Shown piece after piece: positions 2,447-25,341 of a DNA stretch of 64,000 nt; positions within the stretch are counted from its first letter, which is position 1, and each line of letters starts with the position of its first letter. The stretch is from Patescibacteria group bacterium. GTDB lineage: Bacteria > Patescibacteriota > UBA1384 > XYA2-FULL-43-10. The notes under the pieces were generated by a model. It was not told the origin of the DNA, searched no databases, and worked only from the letters and a program-made list of their open reading frames with translations. The position numbers and the translations under genes are program-made. Location of the stretch: assembly GCA_041674405.1 (NCBI GenBank), contig JBAYVT010000005.1:7120-71119 (forward strand). The letters are read 5' to 3'.

Positions 2447-2497
2447 GTTCGGTGTTTGTTTGGTATCATTATATTATGAACCGAACAAAAACCGAAT
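2447..2497 (+). promoter_or_regulatory. Putative SOS/LexA operator: inverted pair of GTTCGG-N5-GTTTGG direct-repeat sites flanking an AT-rich -10-like stretch upstream of lexA
   Basis: 2447-2463 reads GTTCGGTGTTTGTTTGG. 2481-2497 is the reverse complement of ATTCGGTTTTTGTTCGG. Related sites occur upstream of rarA and rmuC. Confidence 0.45.
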
Positions 2498-2529
2498 ATA
2501 AATATTTTAATTTAAAAGGACCATTCAAT

Positions 2530-2566
2530 GACGGCTGGATTTAATCTCCTCTGAAATCCAGCCGTC
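2530..2566 (+). promoter_or_regulatory. Perfect 13-bp inverted repeat (GACGGCTGGATTT-N11-AAATCCAGCCGTC) immediately 5' of the lexA ribosome-binding site
   Basis: Read directly in the sequence. There is no downstream T-run, so it is not a classic terminator. It could be an operator or a 5'UTR structure. Confidence 0.4.
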
Positions 2567-2581
2567 AGATGGGGGATAATT

Positions 2582-3187
2582 ATGGAACCATTAACAAGAA
2601 GGCAAAAGGAAATATTAGATTTTATCCGTAATTTCATCGATGAAAACGGATATGCGCCTAGCTATCGTGAAATTGCCTATTACTTTGAGCTATCTTCCAC
2701 CGGCACCGTCGCCGAATACATCGCTATCCTCGAAGAAAAGGGCTACCTCTCAAAAGAAGCGATGGATGCTAGATCTATCCAATTGACCCCAGCATTTGCT
2801 TCAGGTATCGAATCATTTGAAATTCCGCTTTCAGGCATGATCGACGCCGGAAAGCCGATCGAGGCCATCCGCACCAATGAAACTATCGACATTCCTCGCG
2901 ACATGATGGGCAAGAAAACTTTCGCTCTCCGCGTAAGAGGGGAATCGATGATTGAAGATGGCATCCTTGACGGCGATTATGTAATCATCGAACAAACCAA
3001 TTCTCCCAAAAATGGAGATATTGTTGTTGCCCTTGTTGACAATGCTAATGCCACTCTGAAGCGCTTCTATGACGAAAAAAACCAGATCCGGCTTCAGCCG
3101 GCAAATAGTTCTATGAGACCGATGCGCTTTGCCAAAAAACGCGTCACGATACAGGGAAAGGTTAGGGGAGTAATCAGAAAATTTTAA
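2582..3187 (+). CDS. lexA: LexA repressor (winged-HTH plus S24 peptidase)
   Basis: N-terminal LTRRQKEILDFI wHTH. Catalytic Ser in GESMIEDGI and Lys in TLKRF. The length of 201 aa is typical. Confidence 0.85.
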   Translation: MEPLTRRQKEILDFIRNFIDENGYAPSYREIAYYFELSSTGTVAEYIAILEEKGYLSKEAMDARSIQLTPAFASGIESFEIPLSGMIDAGKPIEAIRTNETIDIPRDMMGKKTFALRVRGESMIEDGILDGDYVIIEQTNSPKNGDIVVALVDNANATLKRFYDEKNQIRLQPANSSMRPMRFAKKRVTIQGKVRGVIRKF

Positions 3188-3253
3188 GACCTGTGCAATA
3201 ATACATTTTTGTGCTAATATCCGCTTGTTGTTACACAACTGGAGGTGTTGGCA

Positions 3254-3439
3254 ATGTCAGCGTTTTCTCTCAGGAAAACCGCCGTGAAGAAACCCGGGGC
3301 TTGTCCGATCTGTCACGATACCGGAATGCATCGGTCTGGCGGTCGAACTCGCAACTGCAGCTGCCCGAAGGGCCGCGAACTCGCCAAGAAGGAGAAGGCC
3401 AACCGCGCGGAAGCGAAGAGAGCAGCCAAGAAGAAGTAG
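3254..3439 (+). CDS. Small basic zinc-ribbon-like protein (CPICH...CSCP) in GC-rich cassette A
   Basis: GGAGGTG SD at 3241-3247, 6 nt before the ATG. Local GC is far above the flanks. A C-terminal Lys/Arg/Ala tail. A terminator hairpin follows directly. Confidence 0.5.
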   Translation: MSAFSLRKTAVKKPGACPICHDTGMHRSGGRTRNCSCPKGRELAKKEKANRAEAKRAAKKK

Positions 3440-3466
3440 TAGTCAGGGCCAACGCCTCGACCCGGT

Positions 3467-3500
3467 AACCCGCCACTTAAGGCGGGTTTGCTGGTTTATT
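3467..3500 (+). terminator. Rho-independent terminator (CCCGCC-ACTTAA-GGCGGG then T-rich)
   Basis: Stem-loop at 3469-3486 followed by TTTGCTGGTTTATTTG. Confidence 0.6.
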
Positions 3501-3528
3501 TGACAGTATTTTTGTGTCAATATATACT
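3500..3528 (+). promoter_or_regulatory. Sigma70-like promoter (TTGACA, 17 bp, TATACT) giving a leaderless transcript of the AbrB-like gene
   Basis: -35 at 3500-3505 and -10 at 3523-3528. The ATG at 3537 lies 9 nt after the -10 box. Confidence 0.5.
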
Positions 3529-3536
3529 ATTTGTAA

Positions 3537-3752
3537 ATGCAAACAGAAAAAAGAAAATTGATAAAATTTTCGAATTACAGCCTTTGCGTTACTTTGCCCA
3601 AATGGGTCATCCGTGAACTCAAATGGAATAAGGGTGATCTTGTGAACATGGAGGTTGATTCTGATGGCGGAACAATTCACATATCAAAGGGCAAAAAACG
3701 GGCTATCAAAACAAACACTGAGGCCAAAAATAAGGCTGGTTTACGCTGGTAA
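3537..3752 (+). CDS. AbrB/SpoVT/MazE-type swapped-hairpin DNA-binding protein (solo)
   Basis: KLIKFSNYSLCVTLPKWVIRELKWNKGDLVNMEVDSDGGTIHI matches the AbrB-N/SpoVT fold pattern. No adjacent toxin ORF. Confidence 0.55.
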   Translation: MQTEKRKLIKFSNYSLCVTLPKWVIRELKWNKGDLVNMEVDSDGGTIHISKGKKRAIKTNTEAKNKAGLRW

Positions 3753-3921
3753 AAACTTGAAATTAATGTAAGGCGCGGCGTTTGTCGCTTTTTTAGTATC
3801 AATTTGTGATTTAATTATTTTAAAATAGAACTTCATGCGCATGTTACAGCTGCGAGGCCCCCACCTCGGGCGAAGAAGCCATTCAGGTTATGAATATCTG
3901 ATAAAGCATGAAACTAGGGTA

Positions 3922-4482
3922 ATGAAAAAGTTGAATCGAAAATTTTTTGAACGGGATGCTGAAATTGTAGCTCAAAACCTTTTGGGTAAATATTTTATGT
4001 ATAAAACAAAAACAGGAATTATCGAAGGAAAAATCGTGGAAACCGAAGCTTATGGTGGGCCAGATGACCTCGCATCCCATGCTAGATTTGTGAGTAGCAG
4101 CCGCAATCAATTGATGTATGAACAAGGCGGGACATTGTATGTTTATCTGGTTTACGGAATATATTATCTTACAAATATCATCGCCGGGAAAAAAGGAAAA
4201 CCCAGCGGAGTTCTAATTCGTTCGGCGGAAATTGATTCTGCTTCGTCCAATAAAGCAGCGACTGGGCCAGGCAAATTTTCACAATACTTCAAAATTAATC
4301 TTTCACACAAGGGATTGGACATTGTAAATTCAGATAAGATTTTTATTGAAGATAGGGGAAACGATATTTCCGATTCTGATATAATTAAGACGAAACGGGT
4401 CGGAGTTGATTATGCGGGCCATTCCAAAGACTGGGACTTAAGATTTTATATTAAAGACAATAAATTTATTAGCAAAAGATAA
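3922..4482 (+). CDS. DNA-3-methyladenine glycosylase (Mpg/AAG family)
   Basis: Motifs FFERDAEIVAQNLLGK, ETEAYGGPDDLASHA and TLYVYLVYG. The ORF is open from 3835; the ATG at 3922 (MKKLNRKFF) is the more likely start. Confidence 0.75.
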   Translation: MKKLNRKFFERDAEIVAQNLLGKYFMYKTKTGIIEGKIVETEAYGGPDDLASHARFVSSSRNQLMYEQGGTLYVYLVYGIYYLTNIIAGKKGKPSGVLIRSAEIDSASSNKAATGPGKFSQYFKINLSHKGLDIVNSDKIFIEDRGNDISDSDIIKTKRVGVDYAGHSKDWDLRFYIKDNKFISKR

Positions 4483-4488
4483 TTTTGT

Positions 4489-5403
4489 ATGGCAAAAGTT
4501 GCATTTATAAAATCAAACGATCGCAGGTATAATATCTCCAGATCTTTGTCACTTATAAAAAGCGAGATAATTTCTGGTCTTAAAAACGCTAAAAAAGTTG
4601 TAGTCAAACCGAATTGTATCGTGGATGATTTTCAGCTTGCAGCTACTCATGTTGACGCACTAGATGCGCTCCTGGACTTCATTGCTCCTTATTGCAAAAA
4701 TCAGATTACCGTAGCCGAAGGGACGGGAATCGGCGATACGATGAATGCCTTTCGCAACTATGAATATTTTTCTGTACAGGAAAAATATGGTTTTGCAGCC
4801 ATTGATTTAAATATTGACGAAACAGAGGAGGTAGAAGTTTTTGATCGCAACGGTCGCAAATTTCAAGTTTTGATGTCGAAAACAATTTTGGATTCAGATT
4901 ACTTGATATCGCTTTGTGTACCAAAGACACACGACTCGGTGGTATATACTGGTGCAATTAAAAACGTGGCTGTTGGATCGCTTCATCGGCCTGTTGATAC
5001 TTTTTCCGGTGGTATAGTTTCCATGTTTAGAACAAAACGAAACAACAAAGCATCAATCCATCAAGGATATAAATACATGAATGAAAACTTAAAAATCCTC
5101 GCATTAAAAAAAGTGCCCAATCTTGCAGTAATCGACGGCTTCGCAGCAATGCAAGGAGACGGGCCGGCACATGGCGGTGAAATGGTGCCATCTCACTGGG
5201 CTATTGCATCATCCGATGTATTATCAGCGGACATTTTGAGTATCACAATGATGGGAATCGATTTGAAGGATGTCGGATATCTAAGCTTGCTTAACGAAGA
5301 AAATCGGCCCAGTGAGCCCTTTGTTATTGGTGATGATTGGAGGTCGAATATCCTTAAGTTTAAACTCCATTCGAAATTTAATGAAATGAAAAAATGGCAA
5401 TGA
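4489..5403 (+). CDS. DUF362 domain protein
   Basis: VVVKPNCIV and the overall DUF362-like pattern. Function unknown. Confidence 0.5.
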   Translation: MAKVAFIKSNDRRYNISRSLSLIKSEIISGLKNAKKVVVKPNCIVDDFQLAATHVDALDALLDFIAPYCKNQITVAEGTGIGDTMNAFRNYEYFSVQEKYGFAAIDLNIDETEEVEVFDRNGRKFQVLMSKTILDSDYLISLCVPKTHDSVVYTGAIKNVAVGSLHRPVDTFSGGIVSMFRTKRNNKASIHQGYKYMNENLKILALKKVPNLAVIDGFAAMQGDGPAHGGEMVPSHWAIASSDVLSADILSITMMGIDLKDVGYLSLLNEENRPSEPFVIGDDWRSNILKFKLHSKFNEMKKWQ

Positions 5404-5430
5404 TTTGTTCAGATTCGAGATTATGCTAAA

Positions 5431-6294
5431 ATGTATATGTCATTAGGAGGGGTCCGCCAAGCGCGGGTTAGAAAAATGGGGATTGCCGACGATATTCGTC
5501 CTAAAAAGAATAAAAAAAAGATAGCAGAGGAATCAGAAGAGGTAAAAGAACCTGAAATCGGAGATGGTGAACTCGTATCAATTTCGCATGGCAAAGGCCA
5601 TGATTTTGTTGCGTCAGATATCGAAGAGCAACTGGAGCGCGAAAAAAATGAACGCAACGAATATGATGAAGATAGTGAATATGACGAAGACAATGAGCAC
5701 GAAAATATGTCGGATTATTTTTATCGCAACAGCCGAATAAAAGAGCCAAAAACAAAAAGAAAAGGTAGTTTTGGTAAATGGCTGATTTTAATATTAGTAT
5801 TGGCCTTAGTCGGAATTATCATTTGGCAAAATTTGGACTCGATAAAATCATATTTCGGCATTGCCAACAGCAAAGAGAATACAAATACCGATAACTCAAA
5901 CCTTTATTCTGATTTTTCCGTAAATAGTAGCAGCCAACCAACTTCTCAACCTACCGTACAAGAAAATACTACACCAAATGCCTCTTCCGACTCGACTGCC
6001 GCCGCAGAAACACCAGATAAATCAATATATACTATTTCAGTTTTGAATGGTAATGGCATCAAGGGCTCTGCGGCAGGCGTCACCAGTGCTCTAGCTAATG
6101 CGGGTTATACCGTTACCAATACCGGAAACGCACTCAAATTTTCGTATATTAATTCAATAGTTTATTACAAAACCGGAAAAGCAGATGTAGCTAACGCTAT
6201 AAAGACAGTTCTTTCAGACCGGACAATCGAGTTATCTGAAGATAATACAATAACGGGTAATTATGATATCGTGATAGTCGTTGGAAAAACATAA
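5431..6294 (+). CDS. LytR_C (LytR cell-envelope-associated C-terminal) domain protein with acidic N-terminal region and one TM helix
   Basis: A TM helix (WLILILVLALVGIIIW). The C-terminal block YTISVLNGNGIKGSAAGVTSALANAGY...IVIVVGK is a LytR_C pattern. Start codon uncertain. Confidence 0.55.
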   Translation: MYMSLGGVRQARVRKMGIADDIRPKKNKKKIAEESEEVKEPEIGDGELVSISHGKGHDFVASDIEEQLEREKNERNEYDEDSEYDEDNEHENMSDYFYRNSRIKEPKTKRKGSFGKWLILILVLALVGIIIWQNLDSIKSYFGIANSKENTNTDNSNLYSDFSVNSSSQPTSQPTVQENTTPNASSDSTAAAETPDKSIYTISVLNGNGIKGSAAGVTSALANAGYTVTNTGNALKFSYINSIVYYKTGKADVANAIKTVLSDRTIELSEDNTITGNYDIVIVVGKT

Positions 6295-6295
6295 A

Positions 6296-6418
6296 ATGGC
6301 ACGTAATAATAAAAACTTGCCTGGTATAATTATTGGAATTATAATTCTTGTGATATCCACATTGATAGCAATTATTTCTTACGTATCGACTAATGTTCAA
6401 GGAAAACCATTAATTTAA
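6296..6418 (+). CDS. Possible 40-aa single-TM micro-protein (MARNNKNLPGIIIGIIILVISTLIAIISYVSTNVQGKPLI)
   Basis: ATG 1 nt after the upstream stop. Strongly hydrophobic core. Below the ORF-track length cutoff. Confidence 0.3.
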   Translation: MARNNKNLPGIIIGIIILVISTLIAIISYVSTNVQGKPLI

Positions 6419-6431
6419 GAAAGGGATAAAA

Positions 6432-6698
6432 ATGGAACCTGTTAACTCACTTGATCAGCTTTTCGGATATTACGACAAATTTCTCGCAAATGTTCCTGTA
6501 CAATATCAGGCATTAATTTCGATTGCCCTAATAGCTTTTCTTATTTGGAATATTTACGCAATTATTAAAAACGGGCACTGGCTTCTCATTGCTTTGCTTG
6601 TTGTTGCCCTTCCCGGAACTTGGCCCGCCCTTCGGATGATTGGCAACTTTCTTTGGGCAATTATCAAGGGACTACTTATGCGAGCCTCCCTAATCTGA
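6432..6698 (+). CDS. Small membrane protein (2 predicted TM helices)
   Basis: Hydrophobic segments LISIALIAFLIWNIYAI and LLIALLVVALPGTW. GGA RBS upstream. Confidence 0.45.
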   Translation: MEPVNSLDQLFGYYDKFLANVPVQYQALISIALIAFLIWNIYAIIKNGHWLLIALLVVALPGTWPALRMIGNFLWAIIKGLLMRASLI

Positions 6699-6743
6699 TA
6701 TATTGATCGTAAGATAAATAATTAATATTAAATTATTATTTTA

Positions 6744-7181
6744 ATGTTGGAAAATATGAATACTTTAGAACTAATTCCTTCAAAAAAATACCTCATTCGG
6801 CTCCACAAAGGCGAAGAAATCCTTGAATCCTTAAAGTCTTTTTGTAAAGAAAACAATATCGAAAGCGGATTCGCCATGATGATTGGAGCAATCTCATCTG
6901 TAAATCTTGCTCTTTATGAACTTAACAAGAAAGAATACTTTAGAAAATCTTTTGACGGGGCCTTTGAAATTGCCTCTATGAGTGGAAATATTACTAAAAT
7001 GAATGGTGAACTCATCACACACATTCATGGGATATATTCTGATAAAAATTTTGAAACAATCGCCGGGCATGTGGATAGAGCAGTTGTTTCTGCAACTTGC
7101 GAAATATTGCTTACAACATTCGAAAATAAAATATCGCGCCAAAAATCTGAAGAAATAGGCTTAAATTTATTGGATTTATAA
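6744..7181 (+). CDS. PPC/DUF296 (PCC) domain protein
   Basis: GEEILESLKSFCKENNI, AISSVNLALYE, ELITHIHGIYSD and GHVDRAVVSATCEILL match the DUF296/PPC pattern. Confidence 0.6.
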   Translation: MLENMNTLELIPSKKYLIRLHKGEEILESLKSFCKENNIESGFAMMIGAISSVNLALYELNKKEYFRKSFDGAFEIASMSGNITKMNGELITHIHGIYSDKNFETIAGHVDRAVVSATCEILLTTFENKISRQKSEEIGLNLLDL

Positions 7182-7202
7182 GTTTTTTCAAAAGGAATAA
7201 AA

Positions 7203-8096
7203 ATGTATGACATTATTATAATAGGTGGCAGTGCAGCTGGGCTCACCGCAGCAATTTACGCAACAAGAAGAGCGTTAAAAACATTGGTTTTGACAGCTGA
7301 AATAGGTGGTCTCATGGCTAAGAATTCGGAGATAGAAAATTGGCCCGGAGAGTTAAAAATCAACGGGGTAGAATTAGCAAACAGGATGAAAACGCAAGTA
7401 GAAAATTTTGGTGCAGATCTAAAACTGGAGCTTGTACAAAAAATATCCAGCGATAAAAGCGGTTTTTCAGTTGTGACAAGCAAAGGAATATATCAAGGAA
7501 AAACAATTTTACTGGCTTTTGGAAAGAGCCCTCGTGTCTTAAAGGTCCCTGGCGAGGAAAAATATCTTGGGCGAGGAGTATCATATTGCGCCACTTGTGA
7601 CGCACCTTTATACCGAGAAAAAAACGTTGCGGTTATTGGTGGTGGAAATTCAGCGCTCGATGCCGCAGTTCTTCTGTCCAAAATCGCGGCGAAAGTCTAT
7701 ATCATTCATCGCAAATCAGAGTTTCGTGGTGATGAGTATCTAATTAAAAAAGTGACAAATAGTGATAAAATCGAAGCCATTATGGACTCCGAGCTAAAAG
7801 AAATTAGAGGCAATGAAATTGTTGGGGGTGTTGTGTTGAAAGACGGCAAAGAGATCAAAGTCGACGGAGTATTTATTGAAATCGGTTATATTGTAAACGA
7901 CTCTTTGATTGAGGGAATTGTAGACATAGATCAACTCGGCCAAGTCATCGTAAATCACAACCAAGAAACATCCGTTCCGGGTATTTACGCTGCTGGCGAT
8001 TTAACAAATATGCCCTTTCAACAATTGGTAATTGCTGCCGGCGAGGGAGCAACGGCCGCACTATCGGCTTATGACTACATTCAAAAGAACTTCTAA
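7203..8096 (+). CDS. trxB: Thioredoxin reductase (FAD/NAD(P)-binding, CATC redox-active disulfide)
   Basis: IIIGGSAAGLTAA FAD motif, the SYCATCDAPLY active site and the VIGGGNSALDAA NADPH motif. Confidence 0.85.
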   Translation: MYDIIIIGGSAAGLTAAIYATRRALKTLVLTAEIGGLMAKNSEIENWPGELKINGVELANRMKTQVENFGADLKLELVQKISSDKSGFSVVTSKGIYQGKTILLAFGKSPRVLKVPGEEKYLGRGVSYCATCDAPLYREKNVAVIGGGNSALDAAVLLSKIAAKVYIIHRKSEFRGDEYLIKKVTNSDKIEAIMDSELKEIRGNEIVGGVVLKDGKEIKVDGVFIEIGYIVNDSLIEGIVDIDQLGQVIVNHNQETSVPGIYAAGDLTNMPFQQLVIAAGEGATAALSAYDYIQKNF

Positions 8097-8946
8097 AACC
8101 AATCAGGATGATAAATTTAAAAGAGGATTAATATTCTATCTTTGCGCTTTTATCTTTATCGTTATTGCAGCTATTTTGGTTTTAACAGTTTCCCCATCCC
8201 GCACAAAACACCAAGAGCCATCTATAACGCCGCCAAATACAATTTCTGGGCTAGACTCCGAATCAAAACCAATAGATAATTCAAGCCTGGAAATTCCGGT
8301 TTTAATGTACCACTACATCCGCCAAGTCACTGATCCAAATGATTCGCTCGGAAAAAATCTCTCGGTCACCCCAGAAACATTCGATAAACAACTTGCATGG
8401 CTAAAAGATCATGGCTATGAGGCAATTACTTTCGACAAAGCCCTTGATATTTTTGCAAACAAAGAAGCAATCTCAAATAAACCCGTAATTATTACATTTG
8501 ATGACGGCTACAAAGACGCATATACTGCCGCGATGCCATCCCTTCTCAAGCACAACCTGACTGGAATTTTTTACGTCATTTCCGCCTTTATAATGCGTGA
8601 TCAGCATGTTTCATTCGATGATATTTCGATGATGATCGAGAATAAAATGACGATCGGTTGCCACACGCTTGATCACGTCGACCTAACAGCTGTCAACCCC
8701 GACCGCCTTCAAAGCGAGCTTGTTGATTGCAAAGAATCTCTTGCCAACGTTTACAGCATTCCAGTTTCTGATTTTTCGTATCCTTCGGGAAAATATAATG
8801 ATGAAGTAGAGAATGCGGTAAAAGCCGCCGGATTCAAGACTGCAACCACGACACATTCTGGCGTCTGGAAGCAATCAGATGATCCTTATCAAATTCCTCG
8901 CATTCGCATGTCCGAATCCACCAACCTCTCAAATATTTTGAAATAA
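8071..8946 (+). CDS. Polysaccharide deacetylase (NodB homology domain), N-terminal TM anchor
   Basis: VIITFDDGYKD, a His in IGCHTLDHVDL and a TM helix near the N-terminus. The ORF is open from 8032 and overlaps the trxB end; the ATG at 8071 is preferred. Confidence 0.7.
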   Translation: MTTFKRTSKTNQDDKFKRGLIFYLCAFIFIVIAAILVLTVSPSRTKHQEPSITPPNTISGLDSESKPIDNSSLEIPVLMYHYIRQVTDPNDSLGKNLSVTPETFDKQLAWLKDHGYEAITFDKALDIFANKEAISNKPVIITFDDGYKDAYTAAMPSLLKHNLTGIFYVISAFIMRDQHVSFDDISMMIENKMTIGCHTLDHVDLTAVNPDRLQSELVDCKESLANVYSIPVSDFSYPSGKYNDEVENAVKAAGFKTATTTHSGVWKQSDDPYQIPRIRMSESTNLSNILK

Positions 8947-8986
8947 TGACTTTTTCTAAGGACTACAGACTAATATATAAATATTT

Positions 8987-9020
8987 GTTCGCTTTTTGTT
9001 TGGTCTAATTATGCTATAAT
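8987..9020 (+). promoter_or_regulatory. SOS-box-like GTTCGC-N5-GTTTGG site overlapping a promoter (TATAAT 9015-9020) for a leaderless rarA transcript
   Basis: 8987-9003 reads GTTCGCTTTTTGTTTGG. TATAAT ends 7 nt before the ATG at 9028. Confidence 0.4.
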
Positions 9021-9027
9021 GTTTGCT

Positions 9028-10275
9028 ATGGAAAACAAAACAACGCTATTCCGGGGCGACAGATCGCCGTTGGCTGATAAGCTGCGCCCAATTGATTTTA
9101 GTGAATATGTCGGGCAGGAACACATCTTAGCTAAAGGTAAACTTTTAAGGCGAGCGATAGATGCTGATCGCCTTCCATCACTAATTCTTTGGGGACCTCC
9201 GGGAAGCGGAAAAACAACTTTAGCAAAGATTATCGCACGCAAAACTAATTCCAATTTTTTTACATTGTCCGCCGTTTCCAGCGGAGTTGCCGATGCAAAA
9301 TTAGTGATTAAAAAGGCCGAAGAGGACCTAACGGGTTTCGGCAAAAAAACCATTCTTTTTGTTGATGAAATCCATCGCTTCAACAAAGCCCAGCAGGATA
9401 TATTTCTGCCCTATATTGAAAACGGGACCATTATTTTTATTGGTGCAACCACTGAAAATCCTTCTTTTGAGGTTAACTCGCCACTTTTATCAAGAACTCG
9501 CGTCTTTCACCTTCGTGAACTCACATCAGACAACATAAAAACACTGCTCAAAAATGCAACAAATAAAATCAATAAAAAAGAATTAAATTTAGAAAATATC
9601 AAATCAAAAATTTCTATTACCAACGAAGCTCTCAAACATATAGCGGAATTATGCGAGGGAGATGCTAGAGATGCGTACAATGCCCTTGAGTTGGCAATTT
9701 TAACAACTCCCGCAAAAAGAGGTGAGATTATCATCGATGAAAAAATTGCCGACGATGCGATTCAAGAAAAATTCATCCGTTATGACAAGGGGTCAGATGG
9801 CCACTATGACGCTATTTCTGCTCTTCATAAGTCGCTTCGTGCTTCCGATATTGACTCTTCATTGCATTACACTGCTCGAATGCTGGAAGCGGGCGAGGAT
9901 CCTTTGTATATAGTCCGGCGCCTGGTCCGATTTGCTTCCGAAGATATCGGGGTAGCTGATCCGATAGCATTGATCTTGGCCACATCATGCGAGCGAGCCG
10001 TATCATTCGTAGGAATGCCTGAAGCTTCACTTGCAATCGCAGAAGCGGTCATTTATCTAGCAAACGCCCCCAAATCTCGTGCTGTTGATAGCGCTTATGC
10101 ATCTGCGCTTGACGATGTCAAGAACAAGCGCCTTGACCCGATTCCACTTGACATTCGTAACGCTCCGACCAAGATGATGAAGGATTTTGGCTTTGGGAAA
10201 GGTTATGAAATGTATTCAAAAAAATCTCATCTTCCCAAAAATCTGAAGGACAAAAAATATTGGCACGAAGACTAA
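9028..10275 (+). CDS. rarA: Replication-associated recombination protein A (AAA+ ATPase RarA/MgsA)
   Basis: Walker A GPPGSGKTTLA, Walker B FVDEIHRF, sensor ATTENPSFEV and a MgsA-type C-terminal domain. The ORF is open from 9019. Confidence 0.85.
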   Translation: MENKTTLFRGDRSPLADKLRPIDFSEYVGQEHILAKGKLLRRAIDADRLPSLILWGPPGSGKTTLAKIIARKTNSNFFTLSAVSSGVADAKLVIKKAEEDLTGFGKKTILFVDEIHRFNKAQQDIFLPYIENGTIIFIGATTENPSFEVNSPLLSRTRVFHLRELTSDNIKTLLKNATNKINKKELNLENIKSKISITNEALKHIAELCEGDARDAYNALELAILTTPAKRGEIIIDEKIADDAIQEKFIRYDKGSDGHYDAISALHKSLRASDIDSSLHYTARMLEAGEDPLYIVRRLVRFASEDIGVADPIALILATSCERAVSFVGMPEASLAIAEAVIYLANAPKSRAVDSAYASALDDVKNKRLDPIPLDIRNAPTKMMKDFGFGKGYEMYSKKSHLPKNLKDKKYWHED

Positions 10276-10290
10276 TTTATCGTAGAATAT

Positions 10291-10370
10291 AACTAATAAC
10301 TTAAAACTAAAAGCTAATAACCAAAGGTATTCTATTTCGTTTTTAGTTGTTACATATTAGTTATTAGCAT
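10291..10370. repeat. Cluster of AT-rich CTAATAAC / AACTAAAA repeats (two direct and one inverted copy) in the rarA-DUF3048 intergenic region
   Basis: AACTAATAACTTAAAACTAAAAGCTAATAACC followed by TTTTAGTTGTTACATATTAGTTATTAGC. Related copies lie at 14721, 20146 and 38885 (reverse complement). Confidence 0.5.
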
Positions 10371-10375
10371 ATTTT

Positions 10376-11560: not shown

Positions 11561-11662
11561 TAAATAGCGAAAGAATGTGATTTGAGAAATGCGATATGAG
11601 GTTAACTAACCAGTAAGCTCATCTCTCAAAACTCATCTCAAAACAATCTTAAGGAGGGTTTT

Positions 11663-12976: not shown

Positions 12977-12987
12977 ATAACTACAAA

Positions 12988-15194: not shown

Positions 15195-15222
15195 TGAGAT
15201 TTGAAATTTGAGATTTGAAATT
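15195..15222 (+). repeat. Tandem 14-mer (TGAGATTTGAAATT x2) in rpsU 5' region
   Basis: Direct tandem duplication read in the sequence. Confidence 0.6.
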
Positions 15223-15240
15223 TCTTGAGAGGTGGTGATA

Positions 15241-15438: not shown

Positions 15439-15454
15439 TTTTACAAGGACTAAT

Positions 15455-17178: not shown

Positions 17179-17549
17179 AAAGATTTGATTTTAAAAAATT
17201 TATTCGAAGTTTTCACTATGCGTTTCGGGGCGTAATCAGACTGCTTCTTACCGAACAAAATGCACGGATACACCTGACGCTCACCATTGTTGCTGGGATT
17301 CTCGCATATTTATTTGGCATCACCAGAGTAGAAGCGGCAATTTTATTTATCGCCGTAATTATGGTCTTTGCCATGGAAATCATCAACACATCGTTTGAAA
17401 AGCTGTGCGATTTAATAGACCAAAACCATAATCCTATTATTGCTAGAGTAAAAGACGGCATGGCCGGCGCAGTATTGATTGCTTCAGTTATTGCCGCAGT
17501 AGTTGCCTTTATTATTTTTGTACCGTACCTAAGAGATATTGTTCACTAA
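17175..17549 (+). CDS. dgkA: Diacylglycerol/undecaprenol kinase (DgkA family)
   Basis: Three TM helices and the FAMEIINTSFE motif. 124 aa. ATGA overlap with ybeY. Confidence 0.8.
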   Translation: MKRFDFKKFIRSFHYAFRGVIRLLLTEQNARIHLTLTIVAGILAYLFGITRVEAAILFIAVIMVFAMEIINTSFEKLCDLIDQNHNPIIARVKDGMAGAVLIASVIAAVVAFIIFVPYLRDIVH

Positions 17550-17647
17550 ATGCCTTGCACAGAATTTGGCTATGAGGTAGACTTTAACTGATAGCATTTC
17601 GCTGGTTTTGTATATTCAATTATAAAATTGATTTGGAGAGGGAGTTT

Positions 17648-18877
17648 ATGGCTAGAGAAAATATATCTGTCGGACTAGATATAGGCAGCACTAAAGTTAC
17701 AACATGTGTCGGAAAATTTGAAGATAATGGTGTCGATATTATCGGAATCGGAAAAGCGCCAAATCAGGGTATGAGAAAAGGGGCAATAGTCGATATCGAA
17801 GAGACAGTCTCAGCTATATCCGCATCACTCGAAGAAGCTGAGCGCATGGCTGGAATGCCAATTACTTCTGCGGTCATCGGTATAGACGGAGCCCATATCG
17901 AGTCTGAAGATAGCAAGGGAGTCATAGCTGTTTCGCGTGCTGATGGCGAAATAACCGAGACGGATATCGAGAGGGTGATCGAAGCTGCACGAGCTATTCC
18001 AAATAAACCAAATAGAGAAGTCCTGCATGTTATTCCAAAAACTTACATAATCGATGGCCGAGACGGGGTTAAAGATCCGATTGGGATGCAAGGCATCAGG
18101 CTTGAGCTCGACGCACACATTATCTCCACCTCAACAAATGCAATTAAGAGCACGATAAAGTGTGTGGAACAATCCGGTCTCACACCGGTTGAAGTGGTTT
18201 TTTCACCTCTTGCAACCTCCAAATTACTTCTTTCGAAGCGCCAAATGGAAATTGGCGTCGTTCTTATCGATATCGGTTCAGCCGGTACATCATATGCCGT
18301 TTTCGAAGAGGGTGATTTGATATCCTGTGGCGTAATTCCTATTGGCTCGTCTCATATTACAAATGACGTTGCTATCGGTCTTCGCACAAGTTTGGATGTA
18401 GCGGAACTTCTTAAAATCAAACACGGCTATGCTCTTCCTGACAAAGTTGCCGAAAAAGAAGAAGTCCGGCTGTCGACTTTTGACAAAAAAGACGAGGGAG
18501 TTGCTTCTGTTAGATATGTCTCCGAAATCATCGAGGCAAGGTTAAATGAAATATTGCAGATTGTTCAAGATAAGCTCAAGGTTATCGGCAGAGACGGCAC
18601 TCTTCCAGCTGGAGTAATACTAACAGGCGGCGGCGCGAAAATCGAAGGATTGGTTGAGCTTACGAAGGAAACATTGCGTCTGCCGGCACAGATCGGAACC
18701 CCACTTCCTGAGATCAAAGGACTTGTTGACAAGCTAGATGATCCAGTATATGCTACAAGCGTAGGTTTGATGCTGTGGGGGCAAGGAAGCGGACATACGC
18801 GCGTTTTTGCTGACACACATAACATGTCGGGAGCTCTTAAAAGAGCCCGAGATTTTCTGAAACAATTTCTTCCATAA
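17648..18877 (+). CDS. ftsA: Cell division protein FtsA (actin-like ATPase)
   Basis: GLDIGSTKV phosphate-1 motif and the SHSA/actin fold pattern. RBS GGAGAGGGAG. The ORF is open from TTG 17633. Confidence 0.85.
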   Translation: MARENISVGLDIGSTKVTTCVGKFEDNGVDIIGIGKAPNQGMRKGAIVDIEETVSAISASLEEAERMAGMPITSAVIGIDGAHIESEDSKGVIAVSRADGEITETDIERVIEAARAIPNKPNREVLHVIPKTYIIDGRDGVKDPIGMQGIRLELDAHIISTSTNAIKSTIKCVEQSGLTPVEVVFSPLATSKLLLSKRQMEIGVVLIDIGSAGTSYAVFEEGDLISCGVIPIGSSHITNDVAIGLRTSLDVAELLKIKHGYALPDKVAEKEEVRLSTFDKKDEGVASVRYVSEIIEARLNEILQIVQDKLKVIGRDGTLPAGVILTGGGAKIEGLVELTKETLRLPAQIGTPLPEIKGLVDKLDDPVYATSVGLMLWGQGSGHTRVFADTHNMSGALKRARDFLKQFLP

Positions 18878-18908
18878 TTAATAACGGATGGGGTAAGAAA
18901 GAGGCGCA

Positions 18909-20060
18909 ATGGTTGAAAAACCAAGTTCTGAACTAGAGAACTTTGCCGTAATAAAGGTTATTGGCGTAGGCGGATCTGGAGGATCGGTTCTTACACGTAT
19001 GATCAATTCCAAGCTTAGAGGCGTGGAATTTATTGCTATTAATACGGATGCGCAGGCCCTTGCCTTTAATGAATCCCCGGTTAAAATTCAAATTGGTAAA
19101 GACACTACAAGGGGTTTGGGTGCAGGCGCAGATCCCGAGGTTGGGCGAAAGGCGATTGAGGAAAACAAAGAAGAGGTGTACGAGGCCCTTAAGGGCGCCG
19201 ATATGGTATTTGTTACTTGCGGAATGGGTGGTGGTACTGGCACTGGCGCAGCCCCATTCGTCGCCGATATTGCAAAAGAACTCGGAGCGCTCACTGTCGG
19301 TGTCGTTACAAAACCTTTTTCGTTTGAAGGGCAGAGACGCAAAAAAATTGCTGAAACTGGCATTTCCGAAATGAAAGATAAAGTCGACACGATTATTACC
19401 ATTCCCAACGACAGGCTTCTTCAAGTCATCGACAAAAAAACATCATTATTTGACGCATTTGGAGTAGTAGATGATGTTTTGCGTCAAGGTGTTCAGGGTA
19501 TTGCTGACCTCATTACTTTACACGGCATTATCAATGTTGACTTCGCTGATGTAAAGGCAATTATGTCCGATGCGGGTTCAGCTCTTATGGGTATTGGTCA
19601 TGGATCAGGCGATAATAGGGCAATTGAAGCAGCACGTGCAGCAATCGATTCTCCTCTTCTAGAGCTTTCAATCGACGGGGCAAAAGGAATTCTCTTTAAT
19701 ATTACCGGTGGCCCTGATCTCGGCATGTACGAAATCGACGAAGCCGCCAAAGCGATTACCGAAGCAGCAGATGCAGATGCAAATATTATTTTCGGCGCCA
19801 TCATAGACGAAGCTATGCAAGGAGAAGTTAAGATCACCGTTATTGCCACAGGTTTTGAATCTGATCACACCAAAATTCAACGCACGCCAATCTTACAAGA
19901 AAGCAGGCCAACAGAAATTCCTTCTTCTCAAATAATCCGACGCGAGGAACGAGAACCGCAGATCGCCATGGAGCCTGAAACTAAAGTTGATCGCGGAATG
20001 GACGAAGACGATGAAGACGAACTAGAAGTCCCGGCATTTATAAGGCGAAAACTCAAATAA
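18909..20060 (+). CDS. ftsZ: Cell division GTPase FtsZ
   Basis: GVGGSGGS and [10 protein letters not shown] tubulin signatures. Acidic C-terminal tail. Confidence 0.9.
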
Positions 20061-20075
20061 TTACAATATACAAAA

Positions 20076-20102
20076 AGTAGCCTGAAACACGGCTATTTTT
20101 TG
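20076..20102 (+). terminator. Rho-independent terminator after ftsZ (TAGCC-TGAAACAC-GGCTA then TTTTTT)
   Basis: Hairpin plus T6 read in the sequence. Confidence 0.6.
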
Positions 20103-20113
20103 TATTGACATAC

Positions 20114-20140
20114 TAGATATAGTTTTTTAAACTATATCTA
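20114..20140 (+). promoter_or_regulatory. 9-bp inverted repeat TAGATATAG-N9-CTATATCTA overlapping the nrdR promoter region (NrdR-box-like core ATATA)
   Basis: Downstream of the TTGACA at 20105-20110. It resembles an NrdR-box AT-rich palindrome but is not a consensus match. Confidence 0.3.
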
Positions 20141-20251
20141 CAACTAATAACTGAAAACTAAAAATCCCTAAGGGGGCCCTTTGGGGCCTAAAAACGAACG
20201 GTAAAATTTCATTCGGCTATTGGTTATAAGCTATTAACTTTAAGCTAAACT

Positions 20252-20701
20252 ATGTTGTGCCCTTATTGTAAAAAATCAGATACATCCGTTCTTGACTCTC
20301 GAGATGAGATCTCATTTGTGAGGAGGAGGCGAGAGTGCCTTTCATGCTCAGCAAGATTTACCACTTATGAACGCATCGAGCTTCCAAAACTCAAAGTTGT
20401 AAAACGCAACGGAATGCGTGAAGAATACTGCCGAACAAAACTTGCAAAAGGCATAACTATTGCACTCGAAAAACGCCCGTTCTCTGAGCCACAAATCGAT
20501 GAAATTGTTTCTGAAATTGAACTTGAATTAATGAAGGCTGGGAAACGTGAAATTGGCTCAAAAGATATCGGAAATATTGTAATCAAAAAGTTAAAATCAA
20601 TTGATGGCGTGGCGTATTTGAGATTTTTGTCGGTATACAAAAAATTTGCCAGTGCTAATAAATTTCAAGTTGAAGCTGAAAAATTAAATTTAGATAAATA
20701 A
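20252..20701 (+). CDS. nrdR: Transcriptional repressor NrdR (zinc ribbon plus ATP-cone)
   Basis: MLCPYCKKSDTSVLDSR start and CLSCSARFTTYE zinc ribbon. 149 aa. Confidence 0.9.
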   Translation: MLCPYCKKSDTSVLDSRDEISFVRRRRECLSCSARFTTYERIELPKLKVVKRNGMREEYCRTKLAKGITIALEKRPFSEPQIDEIVSEIELELMKAGKREIGSKDIGNIVIKKLKSIDGVAYLRFLSVYKKFASANKFQVEAEKLNLDK

Positions 20702-20710
20702 AGGAGCCAA

Positions 20711-21046
20711 ATGGATGAAAAAAAGGGCAATGAATTGATTCATCTCGGGAAAGACAATTTTGAGGAGATTATAAATGGCGGCAAGCCAGCCCTGGTTGAC
20801 TTCTCCGCAACTTGGTGTGGACCATGCCAAATGATGGCTCCGATTCTTGACGAGATTGCAAAAGAGGAAGATTCGTTTGTAACAGCCAAGCTTGATATCG
20901 ATGATGCTCCGGAGATCGCCGCCAAGTATCACGTGATGTCGGTGCCTAGCTTTCTAGTGTTTGTGGGCGGGGAAGAAAAAGGCAGGATGATGGGCGCAAT
21001 GGCCAAAGAAGGTTTGGTTGAAAAAGTCAAAGATTTGTTAAAATAG
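20711..21046 (+). CDS. trxA: Thioredoxin
   Basis: WCGPCQ active site. 111 aa. Confidence 0.9.
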   Translation: MDEKKGNELIHLGKDNFEEIINGGKPALVDFSATWCGPCQMMAPILDEIAKEEDSFVTAKLDIDDAPEIAAKYHVMSVPSFLVFVGGEEKGRMMGAMAKEGLVEKVKDLLK

Positions 21047-21092
21047 CCCAGCTATCGCAGGCTTAAACCATGCCTGTTGTAAAATAATACTA

Positions 21093-21121
21093 TTGACAAA
21101 GTCTCACAATTGTGTTATCTT
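21093..21121 (+). promoter_or_regulatory. Sigma70-like promoter (TTGACA, 17 bp, TATCTT) at the left edge of GC-rich island C
   Basis: Read directly in the sequence. A second TTGACA lies at 21131. Confidence 0.4.
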
Positions 21122-21319
21122 GGAAGAGTTGACAATTTCCGGTATAAAAAATAACCGGTGAGCGTCAAGGTTCTTTATATCTGAAGGCCCCAAAACCTGC
21201 AAAGGTGGCGGGGCTTTCGATTTTTCAAAGCTGCGTTTCCCATCGTGAATGGAAATATTCCAAATACGATGGGCAGCACAGCCTGAAGTCGCAGCAAACA
21301 ACACAGCAAAGGAAGATGC

Positions 21320-21844
21320 ATGATGCGTTATGTGAAGATCATACTGGCTGCATGGTTGGTGGGATTCATGGTAGCCTACGGGCTTTCCTTCATCCCACCT
21401 CGAGGAGAGATCCTCGACAACATCCTTCCGCCCCATGATATGGGCGGGAAGTGGGAGTTGACCGTCAACTCCACTCCTTGGCACGGTATCAACGCGTGCA
21501 AGTGGGAGTGGTGGGTCGACGATGAAACCCCCACAAACATCGAAAGGTCATTCCTCGTTCGCGGCAGCACCGCTGCCAAGGTCGAAGGAAGGGCGAGCTA
21601 CTACGGCCTCGTGCTTGGTGGCTTCCGCCCGTGGATTAGTGCAGTTGGTTGGGGAGCGTTCTTTCTCTGGCTCATCACTTTTGGCCTGCTACGGCAGAAC
21701 AGAGTCAAGCCAGGAAGGGAATTGTCTTCTTCCCAACGTCGCGCCCAGTCGCCTTGGCGCGACAGCCGTCGGCAATCAGTAGCACGAATCCGGCAAAAAC
21801 GCGCTGTTGTCAAGGCCGTTAACCAGATTCCGATTGACGACTAA
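21320..21844 (+). CDS. Hypothetical membrane protein (174 aa, 2 TM, Arg-rich C-terminus) in GC-rich island C
   Basis: AGGAAG RBS. High GC3 compared with the flanking genes. No recognisable domain. Confidence 0.4.
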   Translation: MMRYVKIILAAWLVGFMVAYGLSFIPPRGEILDNILPPHDMGGKWELTVNSTPWHGINACKWEWWVDDETPTNIERSFLVRGSTAAKVEGRASYYGLVLGGFRPWISAVGWGAFFLWLITFGLLRQNRVKPGRELSSSQRRAQSPWRDSRRQSVARIRQKRAVVKAVNQIPIDD

Positions 21845-22027
21845 GTCGCTCACAGCAGAATGTCTGAGTAGACAGGCGTATCGCGCGACCGTTCATATAC
21901 GGCATGCGTACCGCTCATCGAAAAGCCAACTGCCGGAGTACATGTCAGTGATCGCAATCGTACACCATTCGTACGCAGCGGACACTGATGTCACAAAGCC
22001 TCTCCCGGGCTTAACAGGGATTTCCAA

Positions 22028-22060
22028 CGAGACCGCCCTCCATAGCGGTCTCGTTTTGCG
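22028..22060 (+). terminator. Rho-independent terminator (CGAGACCGC-CCTCCATA-GCGGTCTCG then TTTT) ending island C
   Basis: A perfect 9-bp stem followed by a T4 run. Confidence 0.6.
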
Positions 22061-22329
22061 TCTATTTTGATAAGATTCAATATCGAACTGATTTACCTGC
22101 ACCCTAATACCCCAATCAAACATATACCTCAATAATGTTTAATTTCTTCAACATCAACACTAAACCTTGAAAACGTAGCAATTCTTCCGCGGTCGCGACA
22201 AAAGTGTTACGTTCTGTATCCAAAGATCTTGAAGGAAATTTCATCAGCATATTCACAAATATTGCTATTCCACCAACGAGAGACTCCACGACAAGGGTAA
22301 AAAAATTACTTTCTTGCTATAATTATTCT

Positions 22330-25272
22330 ATGCAGCAAAAAATCGATTTCAATTCATCCTGTGGTCCATCGAATATACTAGACGGGCTTAATACCGAGCA
22401 GAAAAAAGCAGTCACCCATAAATCTGGCCCGCTTTTGATTATTGCCGGAGCAGGAACAGGTAAAACGAGTGTAATCACGCGCAGAATCGCTTATCTGATC
22501 GAACAGAAACTTGCCAAGCCTTCGGAAATTTTAGCCCTTACATTTACTGAAAAAGCCGCGTCCGAGATGGAAGAGAGGGTGGACCAGCTTGTTCCTTATG
22601 GATATACCGATATGTGGATATCTACCTTCCACGCCTTTGGCGACAGGCTTTTGCGCGATTTTGCCATCGATCTCGGCCTTCCTGCCAACTTCAAAGTACT
22701 TTCAGGTACGGAACAGGCGATATTTATGAGGCAGAATATTTATGCATTTGACCTCAATTATTTCCGACCGGTTGCGAACCCGATATCACACATTTCAGCG
22801 ATGCTTTCACATTTCTCACGATTAAAAGACGAATTGATCACACCTGAAACTTATGTTTCTTGGGCACAGAAAATAGAATCAAAAATCAAAACCCCAAAGG
22901 GGTCCCTTCGGGATCACAAGTTTGATGATCCGACAGGTGCAGAAAAAACGCTCGAACTTGCCCATGCCTACCAGAGATATTGTGATCTCATGATTCAGGC
23001 GGGAAATCTTGATTATGGGGATCAGATTTTCTTAAGCTACAAATTACTCTCGGAAAATAAAAAAGTTCTCGCCGAATGCCAAACAAGATTTAGACATATT
23101 CTCGTTGATGAATATCAAGACACAAATCATGCTCAAAATGAGATTATAAAGCTGCTGGCATCCAAGGATAAAAATATTACGGTCGTTGGTGATGACGATC
23201 AATCAATTTATCGTTTTCGCGGAGCCTCAATCTCAAACATTTTGGACTTTGCCGAAACTTACAAAAACACCACCCAAGTAGTTCTAAATACAAATTATCG
23301 TTCAACTCAAGAAATTTTGGATTCATCATACAAACTCATACAAAACAACAATCCAGATCGCCTGGAAGTTAAGAATAAAATTAACAAACGTTTAATTTCT
23401 AAAACACACGGGGTAAGTCCAGAACTTTTGTTTTGTGATACACTTTCGTGTGAAGCTGATACCTTGGTCAAAAAAATTACTAATCTTAAAGCCCAAGAAG
23501 GTTATAAATATAATGATTTTGCTATTTTAGTTCGCGCCAATAATCAAGCAGAGCCATTTATTCAATCTCTGAACATGTCGGGGATTCCCTACATGTTTTC
23601 CGGTGCATCCGGGCTGTTTGAGCAGCCAGAGATCAAAATGCTCGTCTCATTTCTGAAATGTCTAGTTTACACTGATGACAATCTTGCATTTTATCAGCTT
23701 GCCACCAGTGAATTATATGGAATCTCACATGACTCAATTGCCGATTTTTACACTTTGGCAAAGAGGGGAAACAGATATTTAAAATCACTCATTAAATCAT
23801 ATATAAGTAAGCCAGCTGAGCTCAATTTTGGCGAATCCGAGAGAGATAAATTAGTAGAATTGATTTACGATATTGACAATTTTGCCAATCGTAAAAATGA
23901 TCCTGTGGGCGAAGTTTTATATGAATATTTAACAGAAAAAAAATATCTAAAGAAGCTGAGTAAAAATCCAAGCGTTGAGGACGAGCTTAAAATACATAAT
24001 ATTGCCAAATTTTTTGATCGAATCTCCGAATTCAATCATTCATCAAACGAGAGGGGAGTGCTGAAATTTTTGGAAAACCTCGAATTGATTCTTGAGGTTG
24101 GAGACGAGGTCATTTCTTCTGACATTGATCCCGATATTGATGCGGTTAATATTTTAACCGCACATGCCGCTAAAGGATTGGAGTGGCCAGTGGTTTTCAT
24201 TGTAAATTGCGTTGCCGACCGATTTCCATCTCGCAACAAGCGCGATCCACTACCGATACCCGAGGATCTTATTCACGAACATCTACCGGAAGGCGATTTT
24301 CACCTCGAAGAAGAACGAAGGCTGTTTTATGTTGCTGCAACAAGAGCTAAAGAATATCTCTACCTCACAGCCGGCGAGGATTATGGCGGCAAAAGAGCAA
24401 AAAAATTATCCCAATTTGCACTCGAACTTCTTGATGAACCAAATTCGGGAAAATTAAAAAACAAACTTAAACCGTTGGAAAAAATTGAACGATTCAAAAA
24501 GTTGGAGTTAAATCACGCTAAATTACCCAATAAATTTAAATCTGAAATTATTAAACTTTCTCGTCAGCAAATTGACGACTATTACTCTTGTCCAAAGAAA
24601 TTTTATTATGCCCACATTATTAAAATACCACTTTTGGAAAATCACTATTTAATGTACGGCACAGCGGTTCATGCCGCACTCGACCATTATTTCAGCCGCA
24701 AAATTTCAGGAGAAAACCCGACGCTCTCACAGCTTCTCGAAGATTATAATCAGGCATTCCGCAATGTCGGCTTCATAACTCGCGAACAGGAAGAACTGCG
24801 TAAGAAGCAGGGGATAGAGACGCTTTCCAAATTCTACGATGAAGATCGAGCGGAGAATTTGATCCCGACCGAGGTTGAAAAGATTTTTGAGTTTTGCGAA
24901 AACAATGTCAAAATAAATGGACGCTATGACCTTGTTTATAGAACAGGTGATAATGCCGAAATCCGCGATTTCAAGACCTCGAGTGTCCTTACACAGAAAG
25001 ACGCCGATCGCAGAATCAAAGATTCTACCCAGATGATGATTTATGCCTTGGCTTGGTATGAAAAATATAAAACCATCCCAAAAACAACTCTTCACTTCAT
25101 CGAATCAGGGCTGAAAGGAGAAATATTCTTCAAAGAAGCGGATCTTACAAAAACCAAGGACATGATTTTTGATGTTGCCGACGGAATCCGCAAGAATATC
25201 ATGAACGCCAAGCCTGATTATAACAACTGCAAAAACTGCCCCTATAAGGATATCTGTCCGGATGCGATTTGA
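22330..25272 (+). CDS. UvrD/PcrA-family SF1 helicase fused to C-terminal PD-(D/E)xK (RecB/Cas4-like) nuclease with Cys cluster (AddA-like helicase-nuclease)
   Basis: Walker A AGAGTGKTS, DEYQDTN and VGDDDQSIYRFRGA helicase motifs. C-terminal RYDLV...IRDFKTS nuclease motif and the CKNCPYKDICPD Cys cluster. TATAAT 22318-22323 abuts the ATG, so the transcript is leaderless. The ORF is open from 22204. Confidence 0.8.
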   Translation: MQQKIDFNSSCGPSNILDGLNTEQKKAVTHKSGPLLIIAGAGTGKTSVITRRIAYLIEQKLAKPSEILALTFTEKAASEMEERVDQLVPYGYTDMWISTFHAFGDRLLRDFAIDLGLPANFKVLSGTEQAIFMRQNIYAFDLNYFRPVANPISHISAMLSHFSRLKDELITPETYVSWAQKIESKIKTPKGSLRDHKFDDPTGAEKTLELAHAYQRYCDLMIQAGNLDYGDQIFLSYKLLSENKKVLAECQTRFRHILVDEYQDTNHAQNEIIKLLASKDKNITVVGDDDQSIYRFRGASISNILDFAETYKNTTQVVLNTNYRSTQEILDSSYKLIQNNNPDRLEVKNKINKRLISKTHGVSPELLFCDTLSCEADTLVKKITNLKAQEGYKYNDFAILVRANNQAEPFIQSLNMSGIPYMFSGASGLFEQPEIKMLVSFLKCLVYTDDNLAFYQLATSELYGISHDSIADFYTLAKRGNRYLKSLIKSYISKPAELNFGESERDKLVELIYDIDNFANRKNDPVGEVLYEYLTEKKYLKKLSKNPSVEDELKIHNIAKFFDRISEFNHSSNERGVLKFLENLELILEVGDEVISSDIDPDIDAVNILTAHAAKGLEWPVVFIVNCVADRFPSRNKRDPLPIPEDLIHEHLPEGDFHLEEERRLFYVAATRAKEYLYLTAGEDYGGKRAKKLSQFALELLDEPNSGKLKNKLKPLEKIERFKKLELNHAKLPNKFKSEIIKLSRQQIDDYYSCPKKFYYAHIIKIPLLENHYLMYGTAVHAALDHYFSRKISGENPTLSQLLEDYNQAFRNVGFITREQEELRKKQGIETLSKFYDEDRAENLIPTEVEKIFEFCENNVKINGRYDLVYRTGDNAEIRDFKTSSVLTQKDADRRIKDSTQMMIYALAWYEKYKTIPKTTLHFIESGLKGEIFFKEADLTKTKDMIFDVADGIRKNIMNAKPDYNNCKNCPYKDICPDAI

Positions 25273-25324
25273 CTTTAAATACTTTATGGACTTGACGAAC
25301 TTCATAGACTTTTGACTATTATGT

Positions 25325-25341
25325 GTTTGGTATTTGTTCGG
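25325..25341 (+). promoter_or_regulatory. SOS-box-like GTTTGG-N5-GTTCGG site upstream of rmuC
   Basis: GTTTGGTATTTGTTCGG, 53 nt upstream of the rmuC ATG. Confidence 0.35.

Follow-up and report, generated by a model that had tools for sequence, protein, structure and literature searches.

We analyzed a stretch of 64,000 nucleotides (nt) from a Patescibacteria group bacterium (assembly GCA_041674405.1, contig JBAYVT010000005.1), hereafter the window, in which lexA, rarA and rmuC are each preceded by a 17-base-pair (bp) direct repeat, a candidate operator of the LexA repressor. All three genes lie on the + strand. lexA (2582-3187) encodes a protein of 201 amino acids (aa) with the Pfam domains LexA_DNA_bind and Peptidase_S24, rarA/mgsA (9028-10275) matches AAA, AAA_assoc_2 and MgsA_C, and rmuC (25394-26539; 381 aa) matches RmuC at 5e-64. 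Four copies of the repeat precede them. Two belong to lexA: O1 on the + strand at 2447-2463 (GTTCGGTGTTTGTTTGG) and O2 on the - strand at 2481-2497 (ATTCGGTTTTTGTTCGG; the + strand reads CCGAACAAAAACCGAAT). The other two are on the + strand, at 8987-9003 upstream of rarA (GTTCGCTTTTTGTTTGG) and at 25325-25341 upstream of rmuC (GTTTGGTATTTGTTCGG). The four sites and the three gene names had been proposed from the letters alone (hereafter the sequence-only reading); the strings match exactly, and Pfam confirms the gene identities.

The LexA of the window combines a winged helix-turn-helix domain (LexA_DNA_bind, 8e-20) with an S24 domain (Peptidase_S24, 6e-32). It aligns end to end with the T. 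maritima structure 3k2z (4e-38) and with the E. coli structures 1jhh and 3jso (around 1e-23). Ala89-Gly90, Ser122 and Lys160 align with VAAGEP, S119 and K156 of the E. coli protein and are invariant in 16 relatives. Since both the cleavage site and the Ser/Lys dyad are conserved, the protein looks like a normal, cleavable LexA. Its recognition-helix region, SSTGTVAEY, is presumably closer to the Bacillus type than to the E. coli type. The protein has a 100% identical counterpart in a metagenome-assembled 'Patescibacteria group bacterium' and is 80-88% identical to Candidatus Berkelbacteria proteins, and by this measure the window is from a member of the Berkelbacteria-like Patescibacteria.

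The consensus of the 17-bp element is G-TTYG-G / t-t-T-t-T / G-TTYG-G, that is, two head-to-tail GTTYG half-sites placed 11 bp apart. In the count matrix, the spacer T's at positions 8 and 10 are near-invariant. The strict form GTTYG-N6-GTTYGG occurs three times in the window compared to 0.10 expected, and none of 100 shuffles contained three or more. All four sites also match the looser GTTY-N7-GTTY, which is found 13 times in the window against 10.9 expected. This background count rules out the tetramer repeat alone as a definition of the motif, and the specificity therefore resides in the extra G's and the T-rich spacer (G-TTYG-G, T-rich spacer, T-GTTYG-G). The sequence-only reading had classed the motif as GTTC-N7-GTTY, a direct repeat and not the Gram-positive palindrome. 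The direct-repeat assignment fits the sites, but the label itself is too loose.

To score sites, we used a weight matrix built from 63 lexA-promoter sites of other species only and therefore independent of the window (21.8 bits). O1 and O2 both reach 25.6 bits, the rarA site 24.2 bits and the rmuC site 24.1 bits. The runner-up position in the 64 kb scores only 10.1 bits, so that the window holds no further copies, as the sequence-only reading had reported. The Gram-positive palindrome CGAAC-N4-GTTCG, with up to two mismatches allowed, was found 14 times in the window compared to 20.9 expected, never near lexA, rarA or rmuC; with a count at or below background, it was discarded as the operator used in the window. 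An Rfam search of the whole window gave no matches.

Promoter elements were placed by eye and by conservation across relatives. At lexA, a TTGACA -35 (2439-2444, + strand) is followed after 2 nt by O1 and then by a TATCAT -10 (2464-2469, + strand), so that O1 occupies the spacer between the two hexamers, with its 3' TGG providing the TG of an extended -10. The word TTGACA is 9-fold enriched upstream of the lexA genes of relatives, which carry TATAAT, TATACT or GATAAT at the position of the -10. O1 and O2 are inverted with respect to each other around an AT-rich core of 17 nt (2464-2480, TATCATTATATTATGAA). This arrangement had been described by the sequence-only reading and is borne out, with the addition that the core holds the -10. 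Transcription of lexA would start at about 2476, which places O2 at roughly +5 to +21 of the predicted transcript.

The rarA and rmuC sites lie differently. At rarA, the repeat covers the -35 region and ends 12 nt before the TATAAT (9015-9020) of an extended -10 (9012-9020, + strand, TGCTATAAT). The ATG of the longest open reading frame (ORF), at 9019, falls within this -10, and the ATG at 9028 lies 7 nt past it; 9028 is the likelier start. With so short a distance between the -10 and the ATG at 9028, the rarA mRNA is probably leaderless, and the same layout is found in three relatives (L031, L033 and L036). At rmuC, the repeat covers the -35/spacer region and ends 11 nt before an extended -10 (25353-25361, + strand, TGATATAAT); from its end to the ATG at 25394 the distance is 53 nt. 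In relatives, TGnTATAAT comes after the box. Both distances agree with the earlier ones (12 nt to the rarA TATAAT and 53 nt to the rmuC ATG). At lexA, rarA and rmuC alike, a protein bound to the repeat would be expected to occlude RNA polymerase.

We then compared the lexA upstream regions of related genomes, taking one genome per species. The resulting 80 loci, of which 79 were usable, encode LexA proteins 55-88% identical to that of the window. All come from Berkelbacteria-like Patescibacteria; many are filed under generic 'Saccharibacteria' labels. Of the 79 species, 65 have a forward.TTYG-N7-TTYG. site in the 220 nt upstream of lexA, compared to about one locus expected by chance as estimated from base composition. 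In 33 of the 79, a reversed site follows downstream of this forward site. The order of elements does not vary: TTGACA, then 0-2 nt, then GTTYGG-N5-GTTYGG, directly followed by a TATAAT-like hexamer. The distance between the forward and the reversed site varies from 28 to 43 nt, which indicates that the unit is the direct repeat and not a larger palindrome. The same half-site emerged from an unsupervised count of hexamers in the 200 nt upstream of lexA, where TGTTCG (21-fold enriched), GTTCGG (19-fold), CGAACA (15-fold) and CCGAAC (13-fold) ranked as the top four. The next enriched words were TCCACA/ATCCAC, TTGACA and the Shine-Dalgarno sequence AAGGAG.

In the 1.24 Mb of DNA that makes up these lexA loci, 137 sites score at least 15 bits, compared to 3-6 in shuffled sequence, and most of those that do not belong to lexA stand in promoter-like contexts. 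The sequence-only reading had named two outcomes that would speak against it, a background frequency of the motif and a lack of conservation upstream of lexA orthologs; the counts in this related DNA and the 65 of 79 species go the opposite way on both. They also leave next to no room for the idea that the four sites are a chance likeness among T-rich intergenic sequences. Such an idea could draw on the AT-rich genome and on the background count of the loose repeat, but the full motif exceeds every control by at least about 30-fold and is kept at orthologous promoters in dozens of species. By these conservation data, chance is already refuted.

The same comparison bears on whether the repeat could be intrinsic to the promoter, serving RNA polymerase or an alternative sigma factor as a special spacer or -35 element. 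The box does always overlap promoter elements, and its 3' TGG serves as the TG of an extended -10. However, the reversed copies past the lexA -10 in 33 species, at variable distance, do not fit a core promoter element, nor does the change in position from the spacer at lexA to the -35 region at rarA and rmuC. In addition, canonical TTGACA and TATAAT-like hexamers flank the box, and in the 64 kb it is found at a handful of repair genes only and not at housekeeping promoters. We therefore regard a promoter-intrinsic element as very unlikely.

Several lexA loci of relatives deviate from the simple arrangement. GTTYG half-sites form arrays in register, with 11-bp steps, of three in L015, L016, L021 and L034 and of four in L007 (5904-5942). 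From their spacing, these arrays hint at head-to-tail oligomeric binding of LexA. In the distant lexA genes of WWE3-like genomes (L162 and L165), TTYG-N7-TTYG is retained in the promoter spacer, and a Microgenomates example keeps the second half of the repeat only. uvrB adjoins lexA in WWE3-like genomes (L161/L162, 1-3000; L165). In L165, uvrB is divergent from lexA and the shared 85-nt intergenic region (2916-3000) holds a TTTGG-N6-TTCGG repeat; judging from this layout, one operator might control both genes. In two other loci, L004 (4733-5250) and L006 (3035-3515), a gene for a '23S rRNA intervening sequence protein' (PF05635) is inserted between the double operator and lexA, and from its position it is apparently under SOS control.

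Beyond lexA, the clearest targets are translesion polymerases, a hallmark of SOS regulons. A box precedes each of the five Y-family polymerase genes (Pfam IMS) present in the loci. It stands immediately before the polymerase gene in L070 and L071, and in L051, L055 and L073 the order is box, a conserved ORF of around 75 aa, then the polymerase gene. The box of the L073 cassette has the highest score of all (27.9 bits). A sixth cassette, in L037, consists of box and ORF and is cut by the contig end. The presence of a box at all Y-family polymerase operons is the strongest independent argument for LexA as the binding protein. The small ORF (..FHVSDEANTYQLRFEPETLKWF..) is located at 15595-15816 in L051, 13612-13836 in L055, 5942-6217 in L073 and 12800-12985 in L037, and it matches no Pfam family. 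By analogy with UmuD or YolD, its product may assist the SOS polymerase as an accessory subunit.

For rmuC, we collected 80 loci in a metagenome scan and looked for sites of at least 13 bits within 250 nt upstream of the gene. Among testable loci with an RmuC at least 67% identical to that of the window, 15 of 19 had a box, compared to none of the 27 more distant loci. Elsewhere in these loci, the remaining sequence of around 360 kb holds only two such sites. rmuC (yigN) is counted among the E. coli SOS genes (PMC6590174). For rarA, 3 of 13 related loci (L031, L033 and L036) carry a box where the window has it, and the RarA proteins of these three are the closest to that of the window. As far as we know, rarA does not count as a standard SOS gene in either E. 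coli or B. subtilis. Altogether, the frequencies at lexA (65 of 79), rmuC (15 of 19) and the Y-family polymerases (5 of 5) agree with the proposal of a LexA operator and SOS regulon from which the analysis started.

The lexA transcript may extend further. A gene for a methylpurine-DNA glycosylase (mpg, Pfam Pur_DNA_glyco) lies downstream of lexA at 3835-4482 on the + strand. In about 8 relatives, no more than tens of nt lie between the lexA stop and the start of the glycosylase gene, and from this adjacency we infer that the two genes are probably co-transcribed. In the window they are separated by around 650 nt (3188-3834) with two small ORFs, while in relatives they are adjacent. One of the two, an 85-aa ORF downstream of lexA with a CxxC...CxC pattern, matches no Pfam family and lacks homologs in the related loci. 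The insert also holds a 71-aa MazE/AbrB-like ORF at 3537-3752 (PF04014, 7e-7).

According to this analysis, the 17-bp repeat is very probably the operator of the LexA encoded at 2582-3187. What carries this conclusion is that the sites are real and rare, stand in promoters, are conserved across species and go with repair and translesion genes, and that the encoded LexA is intact and cleavable. Several points weigh against it. Physical binding, repression and dependence on RecA are all predictions. No recA is encoded in the 64-kb window, so that for the inducing arm we assume the SOS mechanism as it is established. As the matrix was derived from lexA promoters, counts of lexA sites obtained with it are partly circular; the regular-expression count, the hexamer enrichment and the targets other than lexA are free of this circularity. 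A consensus promoter scanner, which expects a spacer of 16-18 nt and a recognizable -35, called none of the three promoters: it misses that of lexA because the spacer is 19 nt, and those of rarA and rmuC because they have no -35. Finally, 10 of the 13 related rarA loci have no box. This rules out rarA as a universal member of the regulon and, on the comparison of these loci, makes it a clade-limited target.

The identity of the binding protein is where another reading enters, namely that a transcription factor other than LexA uses the repeat as its operator and co-controls lexA and repair genes; a second regulator of the damage response or one of the cell cycle would be an example. LexA was assigned to the repeat by inference, and a separate conserved element at lexA promoters, the DnaA-box TTATCCACA described below, indicates that at least one more factor is probably acting there. 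Nevertheless, it is at the lexA promoter itself that the repeat is strongest and most universal, in most cases as two sites, which is the classic signature of autoregulation. The targets (translesion polymerases, rmuC and rarA) form an SOS set, GTTCG is the half-site of the Gram-positive LexA boxes, and the sites are not linked to any other regulator gene. We consider a different factor improbable, and LexA remains our preferred candidate.

The repeat can be compared with three known systems. In Alphaproteobacteria, the LexA box is a GTTC-N7-GTTC direct repeat (PMC8565304). The box described here shares with it two GTTC-containing half-sites in direct orientation, the 11-bp period and the location in promoters of lexA and repair genes, and both systems presumably rely on a LexA dimer with flexibly tethered DNA-binding domains. 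It differs in its host, a Patescibacterium, and in its longer half-site (GTTYG-G), the C or T at position 4 and the near-invariant T's of the spacer. The Gram-positive LexA (Cheo) box is a CGAAC-N4-GTTCG palindrome; it is built from the same pentamer half-site GTTCG, but there the half-sites are inverted and here they run head to tail. The E. coli operator is a CTGT-N8-ACAG palindrome, and both the sequence and the symmetry of the operator in the window are completely different from it. The regulons nevertheless resemble each other in an autoregulated lexA, a cleavable LexA and the membership of translesion polymerases and rmuC (yigN) (PMC6590174). The regulon described here is much smaller than that of E. 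coli.

A direct repeat is not new to this superphylum. Sanchez-Osuna, Barbe and Erill (2017; Environ Microbiol 19:3465) reportedly described the SOS network and the LexA-binding motif of Patescibacteria. In PMC7739468, Sanchez-Osuna et al. 2017 (Patescibacteria) is cited among the cases in which LexA evolved recognition of direct repeats. The motif had been called notable in this lineage by the sequence-only reading; this part of the claim falls, as the lineage is Patescibacteria and not Gram-positive, and direct repeats are already attributed to it by that citation. In the terms used by the citing paper, the 2017 motif and the present one agree in superphylum and in being direct repeats; in the present data, the repeat extends to WWE3-like lexA promoters.

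We propose the following mechanism. A LexA dimer would bind the two head-to-tail GTTYG half-sites, which are spaced by one helical turn and share a face of the DNA, with one DNA-binding domain swivelled relative to the dimeric catalytic core. Such swivelling of the DNA-binding domain is accepted for alphaproteobacterial LexA. At every target, the repeat overlaps the region contacted by RNA polymerase, and its occupation would block transcription. At lexA, this would involve the copy in the -35/-10 spacer and the second, inverted copy just past the start site, and two operators would provide tighter autoregulation. At rarA and rmuC, LexA would sit over the -35/spacer region of extended -10 promoters. 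Upon DNA damage, activated RecA would trigger self-cleavage of LexA at Ala89-Gly90 through Ser122 and Lys160. The sites would then be emptied and lexA, probably together with the downstream glycosylase gene, rarA and rmuC would be induced.

The lexA promoter carries an additional element. A perfect DnaA-box consensus, TTATCCACA, lies at 2422-2430 on the + strand, 17 nt upstream of the lexA -35, and is one of only two exact copies in the window. Among the 79 related lexA upstream regions, 28 contain an exact copy, compared to 0.011 expected per 300 nt, and 41 contain a copy with at most one mismatch. Only 46 exact copies exist in the 1.24 Mb, of which three further ones are at distal lexA promoters or at a polymerase promoter (L040, L065 and L070). 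The distances from the DnaA-box to TTGAC cluster at 10-11, 17-20 and 29 nt. At rmuC promoters, the DnaA-box is at background level with no enrichment, which rules it out as a general element of SOS promoters. This distribution suggests that DnaA or another factor co-regulates lexA. More tentatively, the lexA promoter of Berkelbacteria-like Patescibacteria could be a two-input switch, combining LexA operators with a helically phased DnaA-box; we see this as a possibility, although a rather doubtful one. We know of no description of a link between DnaA and lexA.

The lexA leader holds two further features. A conserved element TTYAAYGRYGG (2524-2534, within CCATTCAATGACGG), situated between the operators and the lexA ATG, is found at the same place in 16 related loci; of its 26 matches in the 1.24 Mb, 16 are in lexA leaders. 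Its core resembles a DNA palindrome, CCRTT-N-AAYGG. RNAalifold gave no consensus structure for the element, and its reading as an RNA element is thus unsupported. The leader also contains a perfect 13-bp inverted repeat (2530-2542 and 2554-2566, GACGGCTGGATTT and AAATCCAGCCGTC), which arose by an insertion of around 26 nt unique to this genome among the aligned relatives. It is not followed by a T-run and is therefore not an obvious terminator.

In the rest of the window, Pfam identifies an AddA-like helicase-nuclease at 22204-25272, and the remaining genes are housekeeping ones (enolase, FtsA, FtsZ, SecDF, RF-1, CysRS, TGT and others). Long ORFs are all on the + strand up to around 30.9 kb and on the - strand from 31.4 kb, and the cumulative GC skew peaks at around 28 kb; in these features, the region 28000-31400 (approximate left limit) looks like the replication terminus. 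A gene for a HerA/DUF87-type ATPase of 1053 aa (31383-34544) lies at the strand switch. Very large ORFs (847, 531 and 828 aa; regions 36292-43415 and 53544-59276) matched no Pfam family. A GC-richer block (GC 0.52, 56-60 kb) encodes DUF11/DUF7619 repeat proteins. The products of the large ORFs and of this block are probably surface proteins typical of these organisms.

Current views are not overturned by these results, since the literature already contains both direct-repeat LexA boxes and an SOS network of Patescibacteria, and if the motif and regulon of 2017 coincide with the present ones, the regulon would count as already known. What the analysis provides is a computationally well-supported LexA regulon for an uncultured lineage with a reduced genome. 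It comprises lexA, perhaps with the methylpurine glycosylase gene, rmuC and rarA, the last limited to a clade; in relatives there is also a cassette that encodes a small protein and a Y-family polymerase. It indicates which repair functions remain under damage control in a minimal cell, and it adds data on how LexA re-uses the GTTCG half-site head to tail. Most worth further work are the unannotated polymerase partner of around 75 aa and, at lexA promoters, the phased DnaA-box. Should DnaA bind this box, the amount of SOS repressor would be tuned by the replication initiator, and the damage response of a minimal genome would thereby be coupled to the state of replication.

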